From assembly GCA_036379875.1 (NCBI GenBank), contig DASVFV010000120.1:1223-65222 (forward strand): DNA of 64,000 bases, in the 5' to 3' direction. The stretch's first letter is position 1. The number at the start of each line of letters is the position of its first letter. The DNA is from Burkholderiales bacterium (GTDB lineage: Bacteria; Pseudomonadota; Gammaproteobacteria; Burkholderiales; SG8-39). The notes beneath the pieces are model-generated. The model did no database searches and had not been told where the DNA came from. It saw only the letters and a list, made by a program, of their open reading frames with translations. Both the position numbers and the translations under genes were made by a program. Below are positions 17,557 through 39,246 of the stretch, piece by piece.

Positions 17557-17560
<4 letters not shown>
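16376..17560 (-). CDS. M20-family amidohydrolase (N-acyl-L-amino acid amidohydrolase / hippurate hydrolase-like)
   Basis: ELRKKLHEHPELAFEEHETA, ADMDALP and MHACGHDVH motifs. ATG 17560 forms an ATGA overlap with the ABC-F stop. Confidence 0.88.
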
Positions 17561-19389
<1,829 letters not shown>

Positions 19390-21736: not shown

Positions 21737-22068
21737 AGATCTACGGCATCCGGAACTGCGACACGATGAAGAAGGCGTTCGCCTTCCTCGAGTCGAAGAA
21801 GCTCGCGTACGAGTTCCACGACTACAAGAAGGACGGCGTGCCGCCCGGCAAGCTCGGCGAGTGGGCGAAGCGCGTCGGCTGGGAGAAGCTCGCCAACACG
21901 CGCGGCCCGACCTGGCGCAACATCCCGGACGCGGAGAAGGCAGGCCTCACCGAGGCGCGCGCGCTCAGGCTGCTCGAGAGATACCCGAGCGCCATCAAGC
22001 GCCCGGTGCTGGAAGCGGGATCGAAGCTGCTGGTCGGCTTCGATCCCGGCGAATACTCGAAGCTCTAG
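21733..22068 (+). CDS. ArsC/Spx/MgsR-family protein (YffB-like)
   Basis: GTG 21733 forms a GTGA overlap. VKIYGIRNCDTMKKAFAFLE...IKRPVL is typical of YffB-type ArsC-family proteins. Confidence 0.85.
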   Translation: MKIYGIRNCDTMKKAFAFLESKKLAYEFHDYKKDGVPPGKLGEWAKRVGWEKLANTRGPTWRNIPDAEKAGLTEARALRLLERYPSAIKRPVLEAGSKLLVGFDPGEYSKL

Positions 22069-24098
22069 CGGCTCTTCGCGCCCAGGTAGGTCGCGACGTC
22101 CTCGAGCAGCGCGCGCGGGTAGATCGTCACCTCGCCCGAGCTCGGATAGCACGACGCGCCGGCCTTGCCGCCGCGCGATTGCAGCCCGAAGCCGGCCGAT
22201 CCCTTGATGCGGATGCCGAGGTATTCGCGGTTGTTCCAGGGATTCACCGCGGTGGTGAAGCTGGCGTCGGCCTTGCCGGCGAAGGGGCCGTAGCTCACCT
22301 TGCGCCCGACGCTGGAGGAGCCGCTGGTGTCCACCCCGACGCCGACGCCGTAGACCTTGCCGCTCGCGCTGCCCGACACCTTCACCCCGTCCTTGCCGAC
22401 GTTGGCCGAGCCGGTGGCGGAAAAACCGCCCTTGGTCCACTTGTAGCTGAACTTGCCTTCGCCGAGGTCGTTCAGGTCCGCCGAGCCCGACAGCGGCCCG
22501 ATGCTGAAGTCGCACGGCAGGTTGGTGAGCGTGCGGCTGTCCACGCCCCACGCCATGCGATCGCGCAGGTGCGCGAGGTACGCCTGGTATTGCTCCGCGA
22601 GCAGCTCGAGGCGCAATTCGGCCATCACCGGCTCGCATTGCTGGTCGTGGTCGCGCTTCGCGAGCGCGATGCCCTCCTCGATCCAGCCGCGCTCCTGGCC
22701 GAACCAGCGCGACTGCTCCTCGAGGAACGCGGGCACCCTGCCGCCGGCGAGGAGATGCGGCTGCAGCAGCAGGGTCGACCCATAGGCCTGGTTGATCTGC
22801 CAGACCGCGAAGGCGAACGCGTCGGCCGGCTTTCCGTCCGGCCCCGGAAAGGACGGCCCGCCCTTGCGCAGGTCGCGCAGCAGGCCGACCGCGAACTCGC
22901 GCGCCGCGCCGATCTCGCCCTCGGCGAGCGAGATCACCCAGCGCGACTCATTGTCGAAATTGCGGCTCGCGGTGTTGACGCGCTGCTGGCGCGCCTGCGC
23001 CCACTGCTCGATGAGCACCTTGTTGGTCGCGCACTCCCGCGCCCGCGCGCGCAGGCGGCAGCCGCTCGAGTCGCCCTTGATCGCGTTGCATGCGTCGATA
23101 TCGCGCCAGTACTGCCGGGTGGCCTCTTCGCGTCCGAAGTGGCGCCGGTCCTCCACCGCCTGGCTGAGCAGCGACTTGCCCGGCTGGACGCGCTGGCCGC
23201 AGTCGTTGCCCGGGCTGCCGCACGGCAGGTCGCGCACGTACGCCTGGGGATCGAGGCCCAGCGCGTCGGCCCAGAACACCAGCTCGAACCCCGACTCAAC
23301 GAAGTAGTAGCTGTCGAGCAGCATCCCGGTGAGCATGAAGTACGCGGTGGCGCACTGGCTGAGGGCCATGTTGTGCTGCAAGGCGTCGCCAGGGACGCGA
23401 CGAGCGTTGCGCGCCAGCTCGCGCAGGTTCTTCGCCAGTTCCTGCGGGATCTGCGCCTCGGTGGCGAAGGCCTTCTGCCGGTGGTCGACGCTCTGCAACC
23501 GGTCGTGGCGCAGGTGGTTTTGCTTGCGCACCGAGAGCACGCGCTGCGCATGGCGCTCGAATGCCGCGATGCAGCGCCCAATCGCGTCGTTCGCATCGGG
23601 CTTGGGCGCCGGCGGCGGCTTGCCGGTCTCGATGAGCGACGCCTGCAGCTCGACGAGCGGATCGCCCGGCGCGAGCCGAACCGCCTCGCCGATCGCCTGG
23701 CGGGCCTCCGCGGCGGCGCCCTGCGCCTTGTGCACCACCGCGAGCGCCTCGAAGAGATGCGGCGAGCGATAGCCCATGGCGTGCGCGCAGGTGAGAAGCC
23801 GCAGCGCATCGGGCTTGCGCTCGAGGTAATGCAGGTAGATGCCGGCGTCGGCGACCGTCTTGCCGTTCCAGTCCGCCGCGGCCACCTTGAGCCCGAGCCA
23901 CGCGGCGAGGCGCACTTCGCCCGCGAGCAGCGCGGCGGCCGCGCTCTCCGCCGAGGGCTTCGCGGCCTTGTCCGCGATGCTCTTCTCGAGCTCGGCGCGG
24001 ATCTCTTCGGCGCGCTCCCGCGCGCCGCCGCAGGCCTGCTGCGCTTGCGCCGCGCCGGCGCCGAGCAGTGCCAACAACGCGATCGCAATCGCTTTCAC
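22065..24098 (-). CDS. Secreted Cys-rich protein of unknown function (677 aa)
   Basis: GTG start with a GGGGAGGG Shine-Dalgarno sequence. Signal peptide KAIAIALLALLGAGAAQA, about 14 Cys, non-repetitive composition and a Gly/Ser-rich C-terminal ~130 aa with alternating pattern. I recognise no domain. Confidence 0.7.
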   Translation of the reverse strand: MKAIAIALLALLGAGAAQAQQACGGARERAEEIRAELEKSIADKAAKPSAESAAAALLAGEVRLAAWLGLKVAAADWNGKTVADAGIYLHYLERKPDALRLLTCAHAMGYRSPHLFEALAVVHKAQGAAAEARQAIGEAVRLAPGDPLVELQASLIETGKPPPAPKPDANDAIGRCIAAFERHAQRVLSVRKQNHLRHDRLQSVDHRQKAFATEAQIPQELAKNLRELARNARRVPGDALQHNMALSQCATAYFMLTGMLLDSYYFVESGFELVFWADALGLDPQAYVRDLPCGSPGNDCGQRVQPGKSLLSQAVEDRRHFGREEATRQYWRDIDACNAIKGDSSGCRLRARARECATNKVLIEQWAQARQQRVNTASRNFDNESRWVISLAEGEIGAAREFAVGLLRDLRKGGPSFPGPDGKPADAFAFAVWQINQAYGSTLLLQPHLLAGGRVPAFLEEQSRWFGQERGWIEEGIALAKRDHDQQCEPVMAELRLELLAEQYQAYLAHLRDRMAWGVDSRTLTNLPCDFSIGPLSGSADLNDLGEGKFSYKWTKGGFSATGSANVGKDGVKVSGSASGKVYGVGVGVDTSGSSSVGRKVSYGPFAGKADASFTTAVNPWNNREYLGIRIKGSAGFGLQSRGGKAGASCYPSSGEVTIYPRALLEDVATYLGAKSR

Positions 24099-24159
24099 GG
24101 CGTGCCCTCCCCGGCGCTCAGTTTAGCGCCGCGCGGGTGATGTGCTTTAATCGCGGCGC

Positions 24160-25449
24160 GTGGCTACAAAATTTCTGTTCGTTTCGTGGGAAGGCCTGAT
24201 CGCCGACATCGCGTGGCAGGTGGTGAAGGAAGGCCACGAGGCGCGGCTGTGGATCCAGAACCCGGAGGAGAGCGGCATCGCCGACGGGTTCGTGCCGAAG
24301 ACCGGCGACTGGCGCAAGGAGGTCGACTGGGCCGACGTGGTGGTGTTCGACGACGTGCTCGGCATGGGCGCGCTCGCCGAGGAGCTGCGCCAGGCCGGCA
24401 AGCCGGTGGTGGGCGGCTCGCCCTACACCGACAAGCTCGAGGACGACCGCGCCTTCGGCCAGCAGGAGCTGAAGGCGGCCGGCGTGTCGATCATCTCGCA
24501 CGAGAACTTCACCTCGTTCGACGAAGCGGTCGCCTATGTCCAGCAGAACCCCAACCGCTACGTGCTCAAGCCGAGCGGCGAGGCGCAGAACATCAAGCGC
24601 CTGCTCTTCGTCGGCGAGGAGGACGACGGGCGCGACATCCTCCAGGTGCTGCAGGACTGGAAGCGCGCCTGGTCGGACAAGGTGAAGGAGTTCCAGCTGC
24701 AGCGCCGCATCATGGGGGTGGAAGTGGCGGTGGGGGCTTTCTTCAACGGCAGGGAGTTCGTCACCCCGGTGTGCATCAACTTCGAGCACAAGAAGCTCTT
24801 CCCCGGCGACATCGGCCCGCCCACCGGCGAGATGGGCACCTCGATGTTCTGGAGCGAGCCGAACCGGCTGTTCAACGCCACGCTGAAGAAGATGGAAGCG
24901 AAGCTCGCGGAAGCGCGCTACACCGGCTACATCGACATCAACTGCATCGTGAACAACAACGGCATCTACCCGCTGGAGTTCACCTCGCGCTTCGGCTACC
25001 CGGCGATCAGCATCCAGCAGGAAGGCATCCTCACCCCGATGGGCGAGCTCCTGCAGGGCCTCGCCAACGGCACGGCCAGCCGGCTGCGCGCGCGCAGCGG
25101 CTTCCAGATCGGCGTGCGCATCGTGGTGCCGCCCTTCCCCTACAACGACCCCGAGACCCTGGAAAACACCTCCAAGGACTCGGTGATCCTGTTCAAGACG
25201 CCGAGCCGCGAGGGCTACCACATCGAGGACGTGAGGAGCGCGAACGGCGAGTGGCTGGTGACCGGCACCTCCGGCGTGGTGCTGATCGTCTGCGGCGCCG
25301 GCCCGACCATGAAGCAGGCCCAGCGCCAGGCCTACAACAGGGTGCGCAACGTGATGATCCCCCATATGTACTACCGCGACGACATAGGGGAGCGGTGGTA
25401 CGAGGACAGCGATCGCCTTCACGCTTGGGGGTATTTGAGAGAGGCGTAA
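24160..25449 (+). CDS. Divergent PurD-like ATP-grasp enzyme
   Basis: GTG start. GPPTGEMGT and EFTSRFGYP resemble the PurD motifs GPNTGGMG and EFNCRFGDPE, but the canonical N-terminal GGREHA motif is absent. Confidence 0.8.
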   Translation: MATKFLFVSWEGLIADIAWQVVKEGHEARLWIQNPEESGIADGFVPKTGDWRKEVDWADVVVFDDVLGMGALAEELRQAGKPVVGGSPYTDKLEDDRAFGQQELKAAGVSIISHENFTSFDEAVAYVQQNPNRYVLKPSGEAQNIKRLLFVGEEDDGRDILQVLQDWKRAWSDKVKEFQLQRRIMGVEVAVGAFFNGREFVTPVCINFEHKKLFPGDIGPPTGEMGTSMFWSEPNRLFNATLKKMEAKLAEARYTGYIDINCIVNNNGIYPLEFTSRFGYPAISIQQEGILTPMGELLQGLANGTASRLRARSGFQIGVRIVVPPFPYNDPETLENTSKDSVILFKTPSREGYHIEDVRSANGEWLVTGTSGVVLIVCGAGPTMKQAQRQAYNRVRNVMIPHMYYRDDIGERWYEDSDRLHAWGYLREA

Positions 25450-26142
25450 TTGCCGTATCCCTTCGCGCACCCGGCGGCCGTGCTTCCCCTCGCCCGTCCG
25501 CTGGGACGCTTCGCAGTCCCCTCGGCGCTCGCCATCGGCAGCATCGCGCCCGACCTGTGGCACTTCGTGCCGCTCGTCGACCGCGCGCACAGCCACGGCG
25601 CCGAGGCACTGCTGTGGTTCTGCCTGCCGGTTGGGCTCGCGGCGTATCTGCTTTTCCATCTTGTCCTGAAGGCGCCGCTGATCGCGCTCGTGTGGCCGCG
25701 GCTTGGCGTGTTTACCACTGCCGGATTGCCGTCGCGTTCGTGGCTTGCGGTCGTTACTTCAATCGTGGCGGGCGCCGCGACGCATCTCATCTGGGATGCG
25801 CTGACACACTCTAACGATCTGACTTTGCCCGGTCCGAACTGGGCGCAGCACGCGAGCACGATAGCGGGCACTGTAATTCTTGCCGGGTGGGGATGGCGGA
25901 AACTCCGCGCGGCGCCGAAAGCGCCGCCCGGAACGGGCCTGCCGGTATTTTTTCGCGCTTGCGTGGCGCTTGCCACGCTCGGCGCAATGACGATCGCGGC
26001 TTTGTGGTCGGCCGACAGCTGGCTCGCGTTCGATCTGCCCGCGCTGCGCCATCTTTTCCGCACCGCCGGGCTCGGCGCGCTCGACGGCCTGGCGCTCGCC
26101 CTGCTCGTCTACTGCGCGCTCTTTCAGCGTAAGATGCCTTAA
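25450..26142 (+). CDS. DUF4184-family membrane protein (putative metal-dependent membrane hydrolase fold)
   Basis: TTG start directly after the upstream TAA. The N-terminus MPYPFAHPAAVLPL is typical of DUF4184. Several transmembrane segments and conserved His residues (HLIWDALTH). Confidence 0.7.
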   Translation: MPYPFAHPAAVLPLARPLGRFAVPSALAIGSIAPDLWHFVPLVDRAHSHGAEALLWFCLPVGLAAYLLFHLVLKAPLIALVWPRLGVFTTAGLPSRSWLAVVTSIVAGAATHLIWDALTHSNDLTLPGPNWAQHASTIAGTVILAGWGWRKLRAAPKAPPGTGLPVFFRACVALATLGAMTIAALWSADSWLAFDLPALRHLFRTAGLGALDGLALALLVYCALFQRKMP

Positions 26143-26167
26143 GAATCAGAACCTAGGGGAGGGAACG

Positions 26168-26944
26168 ATGCTCGCCATGTACCGCGAGCTCGAAGGCGCC
26201 GCCTACCTGCTGATGCACGCCATCCGCAGGATCGGCGTGCTGCGCCTGCCGCCCGTGGCCGAGGAGCTGGTGCGCCAGATCTACTTCACCGGCGCCGCCG
26301 CCACCGGCGGCATCGTGCTGCGCGGCGCGTTCATCGGCACGCTCATCATCGCCTACGTGATCGAGGTGCTGAACGCCGACGCGGCGCTCGCGGTGAAAAT
26401 GCTCCTTTGGGTCGTGCTGCGCGAGGTCGGGCCGCTGATCGCCGCGGTGCTGGTGATCCAGAGGAGCGGCACCGCGGTCGCCACCGAGCTCGCGCTGCGC
26501 GAGATCTCGGGCGAGATCGCGAGCCTGCGGCGCATGCGCATCGACCCTTACGACTACCTCGTGGTGCCGCGCGTGGTCGGCATGGCGCTCTCCAACGCCG
26601 CGCTCACGCTCTACGTGCAGCTGATCGCGGTGGGCGGCGGCATGTTCCTCGCCTCGCTCACCATCGACGTGCCGTTCGACGAGATGCTCTCCGCGTTCTT
26701 TCTGCTCGCGCAGCCCTCCGATCTCGTTTACTCGCTGATCAAGAGCCTGATGTTCGGCGCCGCGATCGCGGTGGTGGCCTGCTACCACGGCCTGCATCCG
26801 CGCGGGCGCTCGATCAACGTGGTGCCGCAGGCGGCGATCCGCGCCGTCACCGAGGGGCTGCTGCTCGTCATGCTGCTCAACGTGGTGTTCGCCTACCTCG
26901 TGTACGGCGTGGCGCTGTTCGGCCTGGTGACGGCAGAGCAATGA
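26168..26944 (+). CDS. MlaE-family ABC transporter permease
   Basis: 258 aa. REVGPLIAAVLVIQRSGTAVATELA...MRIDPYDYLVVPRV are typical MlaE/Ttg2B motifs. GGGGAGGG Shine-Dalgarno sequence. Confidence 0.88.
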   Translation: MLAMYRELEGAAYLLMHAIRRIGVLRLPPVAEELVRQIYFTGAAATGGIVLRGAFIGTLIIAYVIEVLNADAALAVKMLLWVVLREVGPLIAAVLVIQRSGTAVATELALREISGEIASLRRMRIDPYDYLVVPRVVGMALSNAALTLYVQLIAVGGGMFLASLTIDVPFDEMLSAFFLLAQPSDLVYSLIKSLMFGAAIAVVACYHGLHPRGRSINVVPQAAIRAVTEGLLLVMLLNVVFAYLVYGVALFGLVTAEQ

Positions 26945-27516
26945 TCCTCAGCTACGAGCCGGTGCCGGACGACGAATCGCCGGAGCGCATCGCGGTGGAG
27001 GAGCCCGGCAGCCATTGCGTGAGCTGCGCCTACAAGGAGGAGATCGTCGCCGCGCTCCAGGACCTCAAGCCGCGCAACGGCGCGCGCCTGGTGCTGTTCG
27101 ACACCGACGTCGCGGGGCTGCGCGAAGCCGAGCGCCAGGCGCTCGCGCGGCGCGTGGGCTTCGTGCCCGCCTCCGGCGGCCTGATGAGCAGCCTGAACGC
27201 GTGGGAGAACATCGCGCTGCCGCTCGGCTACCACGCGCCGCAGAAGCTGCGCGGCGCGCACGCCGAAGTGCGCGCGCTGCTCGAAGAGCTGGGCGGCGTG
27301 GACGAGCGCCTGCTCGCCAAGCTGCCCGAGGACATGACGCTCTACGAGCGCCGGCTCGCCGCCTACCTGCGCGCGCTGCTCGAGAGCCCGGAGCTCCTGG
27401 TGGTGGAGAGCCTCGGCGCCGGGCTCGGGCCGACCAAGCGCGAGCGCGCGGCGCGCTTCGACGAGGTCTACCGCAAGCGCTGCCCCGGCGGCACGTTCGT
27501 GCAGTTCGACGGTTAA
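26941..27516 (+). CDS. MlaF-like ABC ATPase homologue with degenerate catalytic motifs (pseudo-ATPase)
   Basis: ATGA overlap with the permease gene. The 191 aa align by eye to an ABC nucleotide-binding domain (LNAWENIALPL in the Q-loop region). Walker A is replaced by EEPGSHCVS, the signature by DMTLYE, Walker B by LLVVES, and no H-loop His is present. Confidence 0.7.
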   Translation: MILSYEPVPDDESPERIAVEEPGSHCVSCAYKEEIVAALQDLKPRNGARLVLFDTDVAGLREAERQALARRVGFVPASGGLMSSLNAWENIALPLGYHAPQKLRGAHAEVRALLEELGGVDERLLAKLPEDMTLYERRLAAYLRALLESPELLVVESLGAGLGPTKRERAARFDEVYRKRCPGGTFVQFDG

Positions 27517-27526
27517 GGGAGGAAGC

Positions 27527-28504
27527 ATGGAAGACACCAAAGCCAGCCCGCCGCGGCGCTTCCGCGGCATCCGTAACCAGGTGAACGCGTTCCTGCTGAG
27601 CGCGCTGATCGGCTTCGCCGGCGTGCTCGGCCTGGTGGCCTACAAGCAGGGCATGTTCGCCCAGCACACCAACGTCTATTTCCACGCCCCCGACGCGACC
27701 GGCATCAACAAGGGCATGGCGGTGCGCCTGAACGGCGTGCCCGTCGGCTCGGTGAAGGACGTCGAGCTCGCCGACCGCGGGGTGCGCGTGCGCCTCGCCA
27801 TCAACAGCCAGTACATCCCGCGCCTGCCGCGCGGCGCGCAGGCGCGCCTGTCGCGCGAAGGCTACGTCGGCGCGGCGTCGATCCAGATCCTGCCCGGTAC
27901 CTCGGCGACCGACCGCACGCCGGTGGCCGAGGGCGACGAGATCCGCTTCGTCGCCCAGAAAGGCCTCACCGACATGCTCGACGAGGTGCGCCAGCAGATG
28001 ACCCCGGCGCTCCAGGAGCTGCGCCGCGCGGCCTCCGAGATGGCCGACCCGGACAGCGACTTCCGCCGCTCGGTGAGCGCGCTGCGCGAGCTGCTCGAGG
28101 AGCTGCCGCCCGCGACTCGCGAGCTGCGCGCGCTGGCGCGCAACACCGACCGCACCATGGCCGCGGTCGGCCGCCAGGCCGAGGAGACGCTCAGGATCGT
28201 GGCGCGCGTCGGCGAGCAGACCGAGGCGCACCTGCCGGTGATCGCGGGCAAGCTCGGCACCACGCTCGACTCGCTCAACGCCACCTCCAACCAGGTGCGC
28301 GAGACCACGCGCGCGAACGGCGACGCGCTGCGCGAGCTGCTCACCCAGGCCCCGGAGCTGGTGCGCGGCAGCAACGAAGTGGTGCGCGACACCCAGGAGC
28401 TCACCCAGGCGGCGCGCCGCACGTGGCTGCTGCGCGACTACATCGAGCCCACGCAGATGCGCACGCTGCCGGTCGACAGCTTCGAGTCCTTCGGCAAGCG
28501 ATGA
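27527..28504 (+). CDS. MCE/MlaD-domain protein with long helical C-terminal extension
   Basis: N-terminal transmembrane helix, MCE core (GINKGMAVRLNGVPVGSVKDVEL), then about 180 aa of helical heptad-like sequence. Confidence 0.85.
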   Translation: MEDTKASPPRRFRGIRNQVNAFLLSALIGFAGVLGLVAYKQGMFAQHTNVYFHAPDATGINKGMAVRLNGVPVGSVKDVELADRGVRVRLAINSQYIPRLPRGAQARLSREGYVGAASIQILPGTSATDRTPVAEGDEIRFVAQKGLTDMLDEVRQQMTPALQELRRAASEMADPDSDFRRSVSALRELLEELPPATRELRALARNTDRTMAAVGRQAEETLRIVARVGEQTEAHLPVIAGKLGTTLDSLNATSNQVRETTRANGDALRELLTQAPELVRGSNEVVRDTQELTQAARRTWLLRDYIEPTQMRTLPVDSFESFGKR

Positions 28505-29352
28505 GGCTTCAGGGGTTTTTACTGGTATTGCCTTTGCTCCTCCTAGGGTGCGGAGGCCAATCCGTCAAAAACACGACCGCGGCGCGGCAGGAAGCGGCCA
28601 TCGAAGCCAATCGCAAGGGCGAGGCGTACGTGCGCCACGGCGAGCTCGAGAGCGCGGCGCGCAGCTACCGCGAGGCGCTGCGCCTCTCGCAGTCCCTCGA
28701 GGACGCGGACGGCATCGCCGCCAACGCGATCAACCTGTCCATCGTGCGCCAGCGCCAGGGACGCTTCAACGACGCGCGCGAAAGCCTGAACGCGGTGCTC
28801 GACCAGCCGAACCTGCGCTTCCCGGCCACGCGCCTGACCGAGGTGGCGCTGCGCCACGCCCTCCTCGACCTCGACCAGAACCGCTTCGCCGCGGCGGAAC
28901 GCTGGGTCGCTCGTGCCGTGCAGCACTGCGGCGAGCGCTGCCCGATGTCCGGCACCATCGACAACGTGCGCGCGCAGCTCGCGCTGCAGGCCGGGCGCGT
29001 GGACGAAGCCGCGGCCGCAGCGCGCCGCGCCCAGCAGGCGAGCGAGGCCGCAGGCGACCGCAGCGAGACGGCGAACGCGCTGCGCCTGCTCGGCATCGCC
29101 GCGCTGCGCGCCGGCGACTTCGGCGCCGCGCGCCCGCACCTCGAGCAGGCGCTCGCCATCGACCGCGAGATCGGCGCGCCGCGCAAGATCGCGCTCGACC
29201 TGCTCTCGCTCGGGCGCGCCGCCGCGCTCGCCGGCGAAAGCGAAGCGGCGCGCGCCTACTACGCCCGCGCCCTCGCGGTCAGCCAGGCCGACCGCGACGA
29301 CGCCGGCGCGGCGGAGGCGCGCGCGATGCTCGACGCCTCCACCGGCAAATAG
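28501..29352 (+). CDS. TPR-repeat lipoprotein
   Basis: ATGA overlap with the upstream gene. Lipobox LLLLGC. Repeated A-rich helical pairs (ARSYREALRLSQ..., ALRLLGIAALRAGDFGAARPHLEQALAI...). Confidence 0.75.
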   Translation: MRLQGFLLVLPLLLLGCGGQSVKNTTAARQEAAIEANRKGEAYVRHGELESAARSYREALRLSQSLEDADGIAANAINLSIVRQRQGRFNDARESLNAVLDQPNLRFPATRLTEVALRHALLDLDQNRFAAAERWVARAVQHCGERCPMSGTIDNVRAQLALQAGRVDEAAAAARRAQQASEAAGDRSETANALRLLGIAALRAGDFGAARPHLEQALAIDREIGAPRKIALDLLSLGRAAALAGESEAARAYYARALAVSQADRDDAGAAEARAMLDASTGK

Positions 29353-29492
29353 CCTTGATTGGTCGTCGTTCCCGCGAACCTTGATTGGTCGTCGTTCCCG
29401 CGAACCTTGATTGGTTGTCGTTCCCGCGAAGGCGGGAACCCCGTTTAGAAAATCAAAAAGCCAAATGGGGTCCCCGCCTTCGCGGGGACGAC
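29353..29492. repeat. REP cluster, family C: three tandem 26-bp half-REP units plus two inverted hairpins
   Basis: CCTTGATTGGTCGTCGTTCCCGCGAA occurs at 29353-78, 29379-404 and 29405-30 (one mismatch in the third). The third copy completes the hairpin GTTCCCGC-GAAG-GCGGGAAC. The inverted partner GTCCCCGC-CTTC-GCGGGGAC lies at 29470-89. Confidence 0.9.
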
Positions 29493-29508
29493 TTATTCGC
29501 GCTCCCTT

Positions 29509-29727
29509 CTAGAAATACTCGTAAGCCTCGGGCTCGGCGGGGTTCGGCTTGAGCTCGTAGCTCGCCGGGAAGTAGCCCGACGGCTCGTAGGGCGGCGCGA
29601 CCGACACGGCCTGCGGCTCGATCTGCATCTCGTCGGCGTGGCCTCCCATCCCCATCCAGCCGGCGGTGAGCGCGGCGGCGGCGAGCGTGACGACGGCGGC
29701 GGTGCGAACCAGGTAAGGGCTTTGCAT
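29509..29727 (-). CDS. Small exported protein (72 aa), unknown function
   Basis: ATG 29727 preceded by an AAGGAG Shine-Dalgarno sequence. MQSPYLVRTAAVVTLAAAALTAGW signal or anchor, with a Pro/Tyr/Glu-rich tail. The track N-terminal extension was dropped. Confidence 0.55.
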   Translation of the reverse strand: MQSPYLVRTAAVVTLAAAALTAGWMGMGGHADEMQIEPQAVSVAPPYEPSGYFPASYELKPNPAEPEAYEYF

Positions 29728-30124: not shown

Positions 30125-30820
30125 CTACCAGCGCGCGGGCGGCGCCTTGTTGATGGTGATGCGGCCGTCGGTCACGCTGACGTAGCCGCCGGTGGTGAGG
30201 TCGCGCAGGATGCGGTTGATCATCTCGCGCGAGGCACCGACGCGCGCCGCGATGTCCTTCTGCGTGAGCTTCTCCGGGATCACGAGCTTGCCGTCGCGCT
30301 CCACCGCGAGCTCGAGCAGGATGCGCGCCACGCGCCCGTACACGTCGAGCATCGCGAGGTTGCGCACGTTGCGGTTCAGGCCGCGCGCCACGCGGATCAG
30401 GTTCTGGATGAGCTGCAGCGAGACCGCGGGATGGCCGAGCAGGAAGGCGCGGAAATCGGCCCGCGACAGGATCGCGAACTGCGCGGCCTCGAGCGTCATC
30501 ACCGAGGCCGAGCGCGGCTGCTCGTCGAGCACCATCTCGCCGAAGTACTGGCCCGGCCCCTTGATGGCGAGGATCAGCTCCTTGCCGTGCTCGTCGGCGA
30601 GGTAGATCTTCACCCGCCCGCCCAGGATCAGATACAGCGAGTCGCTCTCGTCGCCCTCGGTGACGATGATGGCCTGCTTCGGGTAGCTGCGCGTCACGCT
30701 GCGCTCGGCGAGCGCGCGCAGCTCGGCGTCGGGGACGCCCTCGAAGAGGGGGATGCTTTTGAGATCGGCCGGCATCGCGCTGGTGGCCGGGGATTCTAGG
30801 ACCGCGCCTCCCGGCGTCAC
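30125..30820 (-). CDS. Crp/Fnr-family transcriptional regulator
   Basis: cNMP-binding domain (IPLFEGVPDAELRALA...GQYFGEMVL) and a C-terminal HTH (LTQKDIAARVGASREMINRILRDL). No Fnr-type N-terminal Cys cluster. Start is either GTG 30820 or ATG 30775. Confidence 0.88.
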   Translation of the reverse strand: MTPGGAVLESPATSAMPADLKSIPLFEGVPDAELRALAERSVTRSYPKQAIIVTEGDESDSLYLILGGRVKIYLADEHGKELILAIKGPGQYFGEMVLDEQPRSASVMTLEAAQFAILSRADFRAFLLGHPAVSLQLIQNLIRVARGLNRNVRNLAMLDVYGRVARILLELAVERDGKLVIPEKLTQKDIAARVGASREMINRILRDLTTGGYVSVTDGRITINKAPPARW

Positions 30821-31885: not shown

Positions 31886-31926
31886 TTTCTCGGGCGGTAG
31901 TGGAGCGCACTTGTGCCGACCGCATA

Positions 31927-33963
31927 ATGCGGCGCATGTGGTCTGGACGGACCATCGCCGCCGCGGCGCTGCTGGTCGCGGCCTGCGCGACGCCCTCGAT
32001 GCGCTATGGCGGGCTGGAGGACCGCGTCCACGCGGTGCTCGAGCAGCGCGCCCTCGGGCCGGACGCCCTGCGCGTGATCGACAACCTGCTCGAGCACGGC
32101 AGCTCCGCTCCGCCCGCCACCCCGCGCCTGGTGCGCGAGCTCCTCGCCCGGCCGCTCGATGCCGCCGACGCGGCGCGCATTTTCCGGGAAGCCGTGCCGC
32201 CTTCTTTGGCAGGCCTGGAACGCGCGCCGGCCGGTCCTTTTGAAGATCTACTGAAGGAATACCTCGCGGAGCTGGCCGAAGCGCAGCGGCTGCTGCGCGC
32301 CGGCATCCGGCCATGGGACGACGATGCGCTGCTGCGCGCGCTCGCCGAGGGCCTGCCCTCTTCCGCCCATCTCCTCGCGCTTGGCGATGTGCGCATCGAG
32401 CAGGCCAACGCGCTTTTCATCGAAGCGACGGCGCGCTTCGCCTCGCGCGTGCGCGATGTTCCGCTGCAGCCCGGCAGCTTCGAGTCGGCGATCGGCACGG
32501 TGGTGATCGGCACGCGCGGCAACGACCGGCACGGGCCGGGCGCGGCGCTCATTATCGACCCGGGCGGCGACGACGTGTACGAGCGCGCGCCGGCGCGCGG
32601 CGGCGCGGTGTCGGTGATCGTCGACCTCGCCGGCAACGACCGCTACGAGGGCAGCGACGTCGCGATCGGCGCGCTCTCGGCGATCGTCGAGCTGTCGGGC
32701 GACGACCGCTACGACCTGCAGGGCAGCGGGCTCGGCGCCGCCGTAGCGGGGGTTTCCCTGTTGCTCGATTTCGCCGGCAACGACAGCTACGCGGCGAAGT
32801 ACTTCGGGCTCGGCGCGGCGGCTTTCGGCTTCGGCGCGCTCGTCGATCTCGAAGGCGACGACACCTACCGCATCGAGGCGTGGGGCGAAGGCTTCGGCCT
32901 GGCGGGCGGCACCGGGCTTCTCTGGGATCGGCGCGGCAACGACCGCTATGTCGCCGGCGGCATCCCCGACGCGTTCGAGCGCGGCGCGGGGCTGAGCGGC
33001 GCGCAGGGCGCGGGCTTCGGCGCGCGCGGCCGCCTCGGCGGCGGCGTCGGCATCCTGCGCGACGACCAGGGCGACGACGCCTACGAGGCGCAGATGTTCG
33101 CGCAGGGCAGCGGCTACTACTACGCGCTCGGCCTGCTCTGGGATCGCGCCGGCGCCGACAAGTACCAGGCGCACCGCTACGCGCAGGGCAACGCCGCGCA
33201 CCAGGCCGTCGGCGTGCTGCGCGACGATGCAGGCGACGACAGCTATTCAGCCGACTGGTACGCGCAGGGCATGGGCCTCGACCTCGCGCTCGGCGTGCTA
33301 TTCGACGCGGCGGGCGCCGACTCGTTCTCCGCGCGCGGCGTCTCGCAAGGCAGCGCGACCGCGAACGGATTGGGCCTGCTCGTCGCGAGCGCCGGCCGCT
33401 TCTCCATCGCGACCGACACCACGGCGTGGGGAGAGGCGCAGTGGCTGCGCGGCTTGCCGAGCGTCGGCGTGCTGCTTTACGACGAGGGCGCGCGCTTCAC
33501 GCGCATCGGGAAGGAGGTCGACCCGCCCGGCGCAGGCGTGCCGCCCGCCGTGCAGCCGCCCACGCCGCAGACCTGCCCCTCGCCCGACCCCGGCGAAGCG
33601 CTGGTGTGCCGCGTGCTCGCGGCAGCCGATCTCGAACGCACCTGGCGCGAGCTCACCGCCACGCTGCCGGATACCGAGCTGGCGGGCTGGATCGCGGTGG
33701 CGCTCGCCAAGCGCCCGCCCTCGCCGCCGCAGGCCGAGTACATCGCCACGACACTGTCGAAGCGCACAAGCTGCAACGTGCGCGCGCTCGCGCTGCGGGC
33801 CTGGCCGACGATCACGGCCGCGCACGAAGGCGTGCGCTCGAGCTGCTACCGGCTGCAGGCGGCGGCGCTCGCGGGCTTCGCGCGGCTCGGCGAGCGCGCG
33901 CCGCCGGACGCCGCGCTGCCGAGCTTCCTGCGCGCCCTGCCGCCGCAGGACGATACGTTCTAG
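31927..33963 (+). CDS. Lipoprotein with about ten D-x-x-G-[NDA]-D-x-Y repeats (predicted beta-helix/beta-roll), unknown function
   Basis: Lipobox LLVAAC. Repeats about 20-22 aa apart: DPGGDDVY, DLAGNDRY, ELSGDDRY, DFAGNDSY, DLEGDDTY, DRRGNDRY, DDQGDDAY, DRAGADKY, DDAGDDSY, DAAGADSF. Start is either ATG 31927 or 31936. Confidence 0.7.
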   Translation: MRRMWSGRTIAAAALLVAACATPSMRYGGLEDRVHAVLEQRALGPDALRVIDNLLEHGSSAPPATPRLVRELLARPLDAADAARIFREAVPPSLAGLERAPAGPFEDLLKEYLAELAEAQRLLRAGIRPWDDDALLRALAEGLPSSAHLLALGDVRIEQANALFIEATARFASRVRDVPLQPGSFESAIGTVVIGTRGNDRHGPGAALIIDPGGDDVYERAPARGGAVSVIVDLAGNDRYEGSDVAIGALSAIVELSGDDRYDLQGSGLGAAVAGVSLLLDFAGNDSYAAKYFGLGAAAFGFGALVDLEGDDTYRIEAWGEGFGLAGGTGLLWDRRGNDRYVAGGIPDAFERGAGLSGAQGAGFGARGRLGGGVGILRDDQGDDAYEAQMFAQGSGYYYALGLLWDRAGADKYQAHRYAQGNAAHQAVGVLRDDAGDDSYSADWYAQGMGLDLALGVLFDAAGADSFSARGVSQGSATANGLGLLVASAGRFSIATDTTAWGEAQWLRGLPSVGVLLYDEGARFTRIGKEVDPPGAGVPPAVQPPTPQTCPSPDPGEALVCRVLAAADLERTWRELTATLPDTELAGWIAVALAKRPPSPPQAEYIATTLSKRTSCNVRALALRAWPTITAAHEGVRSSCYRLQAAALAGFARLGERAPPDAALPSFLRALPPQDDTF

Positions 33964-39173: not shown

Positions 39174-39246
39174 GTCGTCCCCGCGAAGGCGGGGACCCCG
39201 TTTGCTTTCTCTGAAAACAATGGGATCCCCGCCTTCGCGGGATGAC
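39174..39246. repeat. REP pair, family C (two hairpins in inverted orientation)
   Basis: GTCGTCCCCGCGAAGGCGGGGACCCCGTTT at 39174-39203 and ATGGGATCCCCGCCTTCGCGGGATGAC at 39220-39246, between convergent genes. Confidence 0.9.

Follow-up and report, generated by a model that had tools for sequence, protein, structure and literature searches.

The closest characterised architecture to the system described here is that of Pseudomonas aeruginosa PA3211-PA3214, in which an MlaE-like permease and an ATP-binding cassette (ABC) ATPase are encoded with the MCE needle PA3213 and the PqiC-like outer-membrane lipoprotein PA3214, the PA3213-PA3214 subcomplex spanning ~230 Å (PMC13631591). C-terminal MCE peptides bind the lipoprotein partner in PA3213-PA3214, where they occupy a groove, and in PqiBC; the known outer-membrane partners of MCE proteins are given as β-barrel, MlaA-like and PqiC-like, with no tetratricopeptide repeat (TPR) type (PMC13631591). 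We analysed a 64-kb stretch of DNA (~69% GC) from a Burkholderiales bacterium (assembly GCA_036379875.1, contig DASVFV010000120.1, positions 1,223 to 65,222), hereafter the window, within which all absences from the genome were judged. At 26168–29352 it carries a four-gene cassette encoding an MlaE-family permease, a protein with the predicted fold of an ABC nucleotide-binding domain (NBD) and none of its catalytic motifs (here termed the pseudo-NBD), an MCE protein, and a TPR lipoprotein. This cassette is the functional unit, and represents a conserved, multi-phylum and ancient family.

The cassette resembles PA3211-PA3214 in the order of permease, NBD-fold protein, single-MCE-domain needle and lipoprotein, in a conserved MCE C-terminal tail as the likely lipoprotein contact, and in a predicted periplasm-spanning architecture. 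In contrast, PA3212 is an ATPase subunit (PMC13631591, Figure 1A), whereas the cassette NBD is without any catalytic motif; and PA3214 forms an octameric ring of the PqiC/DUF330 fold, whereas the cassette lipoprotein is an unrelated, all-helical TPR protein. It is the combination of a dead NBD with a TPR lipoprotein that sets the cassette apart, the MCE/MlaE transport architecture itself being already known. An incomplete literature search yielded no account of the cassette, of MCE proteins that have TPR partners, or of a homodimeric ABC NBD that is completely dead, which is absence of evidence only. The cassette comprises the following features:

26168–26944, plus strand: MlaE-family ABC permease, inner-membrane subunit of the cassette.
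26941–27516, plus strand: pseudo-NBD (191 residues), with a predicted NBD fold and no catalytic motifs, in the canonical MlaF slot.
27527–28504, plus strand: MCE protein (325 residues), with a membrane anchor, one MCE domain and a long helical C-terminal region.
28466–28486, plus strand: MCE tail motif LPVDSFE (residues 314–320), a candidate docking peptide.
28501–29352, plus strand: TPR lipoprotein (283 residues), presumed outer-membrane partner.

ATGA overlaps at 26941 (MlaE/pseudo-NBD) and 28501 (MCE/TPR) translationally couple MlaE with the pseudo-NBD and the MCE protein with the TPR lipoprotein; the pseudo-NBD and MCE genes are separated by 10 nt (27517–27526), and a GGGAGG ribosome-binding site precedes the latter.

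Close relatives of the pseudo-NBD number 415, nearly all of them metagenomic. A scan of species-representative genomes returned 27 loci, almost all labelled as soil metagenome-assembled genomes of uncultured Burkholderiales, and a HMMER search over 1.84 billion cluster representatives gave 2522 matches at E ≤ 1e-3, of which 226 are at E ≤ 1e-10. The distant relatives are 200–225 residues long and share the same conserved block (described below), and the frame is intact, at ~190–225 residues, in hundreds of sequences from several phyla; the taxon labels of the cassette and its relatives include Burkholderiales, Thermodesulfovibrionales/Nitrospirota and Desulfobacteraceae (Desulfobacterota). Synteny was assessed by tblastn with six window proteins, those of the cassette and of the two genes upstream of it (an ATP-grasp protein and a DUF4184 membrane protein), against the 27 Burkholderiales loci and 80 metagenome loci (35–75% GC) from a scan seeded with distant pseudo-NBDs, the loci of sufficient length being counted as testable. 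The order MlaE, pseudo-NBD, MCE, TPR is present in all 20 testable Burkholderiales loci, with 38–92% identity to the window proteins, and in 33 of 42 testable metagenome loci. MlaE lies directly 5′ of the pseudo-NBD in 25/25 Burkholderiales and 49/60 metagenome loci that could be tested, and an MCE gene follows the pseudo-NBD in 24/24 and 52/59, respectively. In the metagenome exceptions either the MCE protein is probably too divergent for tblastn or MlaE is not adjacent. Pfam annotation of three further contigs agrees with the cassette order. The synteny analysis thus confines the system to the four-gene cassette and leaves the ATP-grasp and DUF4184 genes as lineage-specific neighbours. Among individual metagenome loci, L108 has MlaE ~1.9 kb downstream and L113 has an OmpA-like gene divergent upstream.

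The pseudo-NBD has no Pfam match, including none to PF00005, and weakly matches ABC ATPases in NCBIfam (4e-9); a profile of its family matches the NBDs of YbbA (2e-8), LolD (5e-7) and MlaF (~1e-3) in the PDB. An AlphaFold2 model based on a 114-sequence alignment of near and distant relatives has a pLDDT of 93.6 and a pTM of 0.90, values that depend on the alignment, a shallow one of 18 sequences having given a model with pLDDT 47 that was discarded. Foldseek places mycobacterial MceG from the Mce1 complex first (8fed_H, 5e-11), followed by FtsE and MlaF (6xbd_I, TM 0.79), with a probability of 1.00 to MceG, FtsE, MlaF and LolD and TM scores of 0.71–0.79 across these (0.76–0.79 for the best matches). 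As modelled, the pseudo-NBD has the NBD fold, with RecA-like and helical subdomains.

Logos of the 114 sequences reveal that every catalytic motif has been replaced. The P-loop is ~4 residues shorter and, of its glycines, only Gly23, which opens the P-loop strand, is retained, the window protein reading G23-SHCVSCAYKEE at the position of Walker A (GxxGxGK[ST]). The Q-loop glutamine is substituted by Ala, Ser or Glu; the LSGGQ signature is MTLYE in the window protein and [LM][TPS]x[YH]E in the family; the Walker B Asp-Glu pair is Glu-Ser in the window protein and [DES][SN] in the family; and the H-loop histidine is Gln in the window protein and Tyr, Gln or Phe across the family. The substituted motifs are themselves conserved. 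No Walker A motif is found in any of 117 distant relatives, and Walker A and LSGG are both missing from ~145 of the top 150 cluster representatives. Judged from these motifs, the pseudo-NBD is predicted to be incapable of canonical ATP binding or hydrolysis, and the public annotations of its relatives as ‘MlaF’ or ‘ATP-binding cassette domain-containing protein’ (others being ‘hypothetical protein’) overstate the activity of these proteins. The dN/dS values of the pseudo-NBD are 0.29–0.60 and those of all cassette genes are below 1; since the ~95% GC at third codon positions compresses synonymous distances and inflates absolute values, the values serve here only to rank the genes and to show that all lie below 1.

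The most conserved block of the pseudo-NBD, V75–H98 (VPxxGGLxSNLxxWENIxLPxxYH), corresponds to the Q-loop and the helix that opens the helical subdomain. In ABC transporters the coupling helix of the permease fits into a groove of the NBD that is lined by these elements. The conservation of V75–H98 is consistent with retained docking of the pseudo-NBD on MlaE, and the pseudo-NBD sequence supports the reading of a dead ATPase that would still dock on its permease.

The permease matches the MlaE family clearly (PF02405, 5.9e-46, 157 bits against a cutoff of 22.5) and scores below the NCBIfam cutoff for TIGR00056 (124 against 212), and is thus a divergent family member; its PDB matches include MlaE (6xbd_G, 1.3e-16) and YrbE1A (1e-12), and its dN/dS is 0.06–0.25. 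The MCE protein has an N-terminal hydrophobic segment (residues ~22–42), a single MCE domain (PF02470 MlaD, 1.9e-18, 66.9 bits against a cutoff of 25.1, residues 48–124) and then ~190 residues of predicted helix. It matches TIGR00996 Mtu_fam_mce over residues 26–295 (2.3e-23) and, in the PDB, LetB/YebT, Mce4A and Mce1 subunits; PF28544 Helical_needle gives weak matches in its relatives, and the helical C-terminal region is presumed to be a periplasm-spanning needle. The C-terminus is conserved in nearly all of 71 non-identical cassette MCE proteins, from all lineages, as W[PL][IL], ~12 residues, and L-x-[VI]-D-S-[YF]-E. The tail of the window protein reads LPVDSFESFGKR, including LPVDSFE; DSYE forms the very C-terminus of many low-GC members, and the tail is kept from Burkholderiales to Nitrospirota-type loci. 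The DS[FY]E tail is a candidate docking peptide for the TPR lipoprotein, by analogy with PA3213 and PqiB, whose C-terminal peptides bind their lipoproteins.

The TPR lipoprotein matches TPR families only (TPR_12, 1.6e-19; TPR_2, 4.8e-15), and family searches found no PqiC-like DUF330/ABC_trans_aux domain in it. Its lipobox is LLLLGC, with Cys17 (28549–28551) followed by Gly-Gly; the lipobox cysteine is present in 59/59 aligned homologues and an N-terminal signal sequence in all 72 homologues listed. A ladder of asparagines (Asn37, Asn78, Asn155 and Asn192) together with Arg195, Asp221 and Arg256 is 100% conserved, and Lys229 90% conserved. Such an asparagine ladder with invariant arginines resembles the pattern of peptide-binding TPR grooves. 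Homologues that are 26–38% identical follow the MCE gene in loci of 35–75% GC. Residues 143 and 147 form a CxxxC pair (CGERC), present in ~76% of the 59 homologues, which may make a disulfide in the periplasm or bind a metal.

A preliminary description of this DNA, made from the letters of the sequence, had proposed a non-canonical Mla-like module with an ATPase homologue deprived of all catalytic motifs, no STAS protein, and a TPR protein as auxiliary lipoprotein. The motif loss recurs throughout the 114-sequence family, with the NBD fold recovered in the model; a family search detects no STAS domain in the six genes or in annotated neighbours; the TPR families and lipobox identify a lipoprotein that stands in place of a PqiC/DUF330-type protein; and the module proposed for one genome now extends to a conserved four-gene cassette in several phyla.

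Comparison with other MCE and ABC systems further delimits the cassette. It shares with MlaFEDB (plus MlaC and MlaA) of Escherichia coli and Acinetobacter an MlaE-family permease, an MlaD-type MCE domain and an NBD that superposes on MlaF (TM 0.79). Unlike that system, the locus (the six genes and annotated neighbours) is without the STAS protein MlaB, MlaC and MlaA, a long helical needle takes the place of the short C-terminal helix of MlaD, the NBD is dead, and a TPR lipoprotein is added. The mycobacterial Mce1 and Mce4 systems (YrbE, MceA-F, MceG) similarly have an MlaE/YrbE-type permease and an MCE needle, their MceG (8fed_H) being the top structural match of the pseudo-NBD, and their ATPase can be encoded apart from the permease. 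However, their heterohexamers are built from six MCE proteins and they share an active ATPase, whereas the cassette has one MCE gene (presumably giving a homohexamer), an operon-encoded dead NBD and a diderm outer-membrane lipoprotein. PqiABC and LetAB of E. coli are MCE tunnels without an ABC motor, and the PqiB C-terminal peptide binds its outer-membrane lipoprotein; but PqiA and LetA belong to a different, non-ABC family and the MCE proteins have 3–7 MCE domains, whereas the cassette keeps an inactivated ABC scaffold. NBDs without catalytic residues are also retained for structural or regulatory reasons in CFTR, SUR1, PatAB and TM287/288. In contrast to the pseudo-NBD, these transporters keep one competent site, and their degenerate site still binds ATP; in a presumably homodimeric pseudo-NBD lacking both P-loop and signature, neither ATP site could form.

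These features suggest a model in which an MlaE dimer in the inner membrane would carry one pseudo-NBD on each coupling helix as a non-catalytic, structural or regulatory foot, and an MCE homohexamer would provide a hydrophobic pore and a needle across the periplasm. At the outer-membrane end the TPR lipoprotein would probably capture the acidic-aromatic DS[FY]E tails in its concave groove. MlaE without nucleotide adopts an outward-open state that is continuous with the MlaD pore (PMC7790496); with an NBD that is not a motor, the cassette MlaE would therefore stay in this nucleotide-free, outward-open state, continuous with the MCE pore, and hydrophobic cargo would move passively down its gradient or be driven or controlled by something outside the cassette. 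Assembly of the four products as a whole into a trans-envelope MCE conduit of the PA3211-PA3214 type is, on balance, the outcome we favour. We hold the passive nature of the conduit more tentatively, as a possibility somewhat short of probable. Similarly tentative is the specific proposal of an ATPase-free, ABC-derived MCE bridge, in which a homodimeric NBD without both ATP sites would serve as a structural or regulatory foot and the TPR lipoprotein would clamp the DS[FY]E tail.

The region around the cassette contains the following further features:

24160–25449, plus strand: ATP-grasp protein, a probable PurD-like ligase paralogue; upstream co-oriented neighbour outside the conserved module.
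25450–26142, plus strand: DUF4184 membrane protein, a variable neighbour outside the conserved module.
29353–29492, no strand assigned: block of repeats resembling repetitive extragenic palindromic (REP) elements, with a 26-bp unit in three copies and then GC-rich palindromes.
30125–30820, minus strand: Crp/Fnr-family regulator, a recurrent neighbour and possible regulator, not a proven part of the cassette.

Reading of the open reading frames (ORFs) gives six on the plus strand at 24160–29352, with gaps of 0–25 nt or overlaps. The ATP-grasp stop codon (TAA, 25447–25449) abuts the TTG start of the DUF4184 gene at 25450, and the 25-nt spacer between the DUF4184 and MlaE genes holds GGGGAGGG. 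The ATP-grasp protein matches GARS_A (1.2e-13) and GARS_C (6.7e-9), with no GARS_N found; it scores below the cutoff of the purD equivalog TIGR00877 (110 bits against 288) and matches PurD structures with E values of 1e-24 to 3e-5, the best match covering residues 61–413 of 429. Its family has at least 7363 matches, more than 15 times the 415 of the pseudo-NBD, with ~80–97% identity among the top 120 and a dN/dS of 0.03–0.18. Five orthologues with 79–87% identity (L029–L031, L115 and L116) occur in five unrelated contexts without Mla-like genes, and the settings of the family include positions beside PPK2 plus an amidase, a Ser/Thr kinase or a sensor kinase, or alone. The ATP-grasp protein is probably a PurD-like paralogue and an uncharacterised ligase in its own right. 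A ~91% identical ATP-grasp protein adjoins the cassette in only seven of the 27 Burkholderiales loci (L001–L007), and none was found beside it in the other 20 or in any of the ~80 metagenome loci. The DUF4184 protein (PF13803, 2.3e-36; dN/dS 0.27) also matches PF00882 Zn_dep_PLPC (4.5e-10), which hints at a membrane-bound metal-dependent hydrolase; the literature searched contained no mention of DUF4184. Its gene is kept in the window and in L001 and L007, is reduced to a 29-residue remnant in L002, and has been lost from L003–L006, in which the cassette is intact; tblastn did not find it in any of the more distant cassette loci, including those from metagenomes. The two genes were acquired in one Burkholderiales sub-lineage and are neighbours, not components, of the system. 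The gene upstream of the cassette differs among the other 20 Burkholderiales loci, where it encodes a solute-binding protein, an aspartate kinase or a response regulator/histidine kinase, or is divergently oriented. Members of one Burkholderiales sub-clade have the cassette 4–12 nt behind the gene for an amino-acid-type periplasmic binding protein (L009, 9202/9207; L011, 994/1007; L013, 3334/3347). Tight packing behind an unrelated upstream gene is shown by these loci to be a recurrent habit of the cassette.

The window is near-identical to contigs from many soil metagenomes, and its source is accordingly taken to be an uncultured soil bacterium of the Burkholderiales type. Unstranded, low-depth contigs from soil and rhizosphere metatranscriptome assemblies extend over all six genes and bridge every junction. 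A terminator scan found no intrinsic-terminator-like site on the plus strand within the gene set, and a promoter scan found no sigma-70-like site across the region, a scan that is uninformative because the genome is 69% GC. The 61-bp divergent intergenic region upstream (24099–24159) is likewise bridged by a metatranscriptome contig (run X25, window positions 23800–24222), as a result either of overlapping divergent transcripts or of DNA carry-over in the RNA library; since carry-over is possible, the contigs were not taken as proof of an operon. Co-transcription of all six genes in this genome is possible, the bridging contigs pointing weakly in that direction, and would, if real, reflect operon packing and not a conserved functional link. 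Beyond the divergent region lies a gene for a 677-residue predicted exported protein with a signal peptide and no Pfam match (22065–24098, minus strand), which is not conserved beside the cassette in L001–L007. A 687-residue predicted exported protein with a lipoprotein-like N-terminus and no Pfam match flanks the region on the other side (31900–33963, plus strand).

Directly after the TPR gene, Tandem Repeats Finder detects a repeat of period 26 with 3.0 copies and 98% matches (29353–29430), with an inverted copy at 29479–29492 and visible GC-rich palindromes. The 14-mer GTCGTTCCCGCGAA has 7 copies in the window (≤2 mismatches) against 1.5 expected, and the REP-like core is GTCGT[TC]CCCGCGAA. 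Other copies of the 14-mer, at 39174, 46782 and 50797, each lie within ~20 nt or less of ORF ends, as located by a rough call based on GC at third codon positions. Metagenome and metatranscriptome depth is maximal at 29364–29577, as expected of a repeat. Within the 64 kb surveyed the repeat behaves as REP elements do, being a short, GC-rich palindrome that recurs between genes.

The Crp/Fnr regulator (cNMP_binding, 4.7e-21; HTH_Crp_2, 3e-14) belongs to the sole neighbour family that recurs across clades, being found in 16 of ~110 loci (the window, L001–L004, L006, L007, L033, L038, L044–L047, L052, L070 and L112). It is arranged convergently downstream, divergently 54–269 bp upstream, or co-oriented and overlapping the TPR stop codon. 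Its recurrence suggests regulatory coupling, and the regulator may control the cassette.

Several observations weigh against the favoured conduit model. The pseudo-NBD is the least constrained cassette gene (dN/dS up to 0.6); of the 114 sequences, 73 retain a Lys or Arg at the position equivalent to residue 32 of the window protein and 82 have an acidic residue where the Walker B aspartate would be, and the loss of canonical motifs is not proof that no nucleotide or ligand is bound. Four metagenome loci (L108–L110 and L113) carry genes for the TPR lipoprotein, the MCE protein and the pseudo-NBD with no MlaE adjacent upstream. That the lipoprotein is sorted to the outer membrane is an assumption based on the rules for E. 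coli, which perhaps do not hold in this organism, and every protein-protein contact in the model is one that we infer. Finally, the analysis covers 64 kb, and a canonical mla operon, absent there, may well exist elsewhere in the genome. This last point bears on the possibility that the permease is energised in trans, with an active MlaF- or MceG-type ATPase encoded elsewhere binding MlaE and either replacing the pseudo-NBD or pairing with it, so that the pseudo-NBD would serve as a regulator, an inhibitor or an assembly factor. The permease is well conserved and looks canonical, and mycobacterial MceG is reported to be a single ATPase that serves and stabilises both Mce1 and Mce4 (PMC9947336). 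Within the window the only canonical ABC ATPase is an ABC-F protein with two NBDs (17557–19389, minus strand), and there is no canonical mla operon. The ABC-F family does not partner permeases. We nevertheless consider energisation in trans unlikely: the pseudo-NBD fills the MlaF slot, is translationally coupled to MlaE and is conserved there across phyla; it keeps the coupling-helix contact region and is thus the expected occupant of the docking sites on MlaE; and pairing of the pseudo-NBD, which has neither P-loop nor signature motif, with a live NBD would leave no ATP site complete. An improbable alternative is that the products form a static trans-envelope tether or an envelope sensor and not a transporter, the dead NBD then offering a cytoplasmic signalling or scaffold surface that is possibly tied to the Crp/Fnr regulator. 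The loss of every catalytic motif, the recurrence of a cNMP-binding regulator beside the cassette in three arrangements, and the generic use of TPR domains as protein-interaction modules would fit this proposal. However, the regulator accompanies only 16 of ~110 loci, the MCE domain and MlaE are conserved (MlaE dN/dS 0.06–0.25), as expected if a hydrophobic path matters, and the Pqi and Let systems are known MCE systems that move lipids independently of ATP (PMC13631591, PMC13017536).

The preliminary description had correctly recognised six packed plus-strand genes, whose families and junctions are confirmed by the ORFs and by Pfam and NCBIfam (gaps 0–25 nt), and a REP cluster closing the set, now resolved into a 26-bp unit repeated three times with an inverted copy and a 14-mer in 7 copies where 1.5 are expected. 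It went on to treat all six genes as one system in which the ATP-grasp and DUF4184 proteins would modify a lipid or envelope precursor for the MCE conduit, whose energy coupling would differ from that of MlaFEDB; in such a scheme the pair might also supply the missing energy coupling. The close spacing, the metatranscriptome contigs that bridge the ATP-grasp/DUF4184 and DUF4184/MlaE junctions, the resemblance of DUF4184 to a zinc phospholipase C and the retention of the ATP-grasp adjacency in L001–L007 are in keeping with that proposal, which we nonetheless regard as highly improbable. A PurD-like ATP-grasp gene and a DUF4184 gene do precede the module in the window, but their linkage to it is not conserved: co-conservation, which that description had named in advance as the test, fails, just four of the six genes travelling together across the 27 Burkholderiales and ~80 metagenome loci. 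The cassette occurs without both upstream genes in 20 Burkholderiales and ~80 metagenome loci and remains intact in L003–L006, from which DUF4184 was deleted; ATP-grasp orthologues occur in five unrelated contexts, in a family more than 15 times the size of that of the pseudo-NBD; other lineages pack the cassette equally tightly behind unrelated genes (L009, L011 and L013); and one RNA contig crosses the divergent intergenic region, so that bridged junctions may reflect DNA carry-over. Neither the delivery of a lipid modified by the ATP-grasp/DUF4184 pair nor the ATP-grasp protein as energy source of the conduit is supported, the latter being rejected on synteny, and the case shows that tight operon packing alone was misleading. 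That the ATPase gene is a decaying pseudogene in a dying operon, as its dN/dS (0.29–0.60, the highest in the cassette) and its lack of a Pfam hit might imply, has a negligible probability and is refuted by conservation: the frame is intact in hundreds of sequences from several phyla, the substitute motifs are conserved, the fold is confidently predicted from co-variation, dN/dS is below 1, and the neighbouring genes are conserved and translationally coupled to it. The four-gene trans-envelope conduit, with the pseudo-NBD as a non-catalytic foot and the TPR lipoprotein at the outer-membrane end, is the interpretation that we favour.

Envelope biology has yet to settle what energises MCE systems and how these are joined to the outer membrane, and a motor-dead MlaE/MCE system is a natural test of whether an ABC-type conduit can move lipids passively or must borrow an ATPase; the cassette would also reveal what NBDs contribute besides hydrolysis. 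With its TPR lipoprotein and DS[FY]E tail, it points to a third outer-membrane docking module, of the peptide-in-groove type, beside MlaA-like and PqiC-like lipoproteins. If the proposed bridge is correct, the cassette would represent the first ABC-transporter family with a retained homodimeric NBD lacking both ATP sites, and its TPR lipoprotein a new class of outer-membrane partner.

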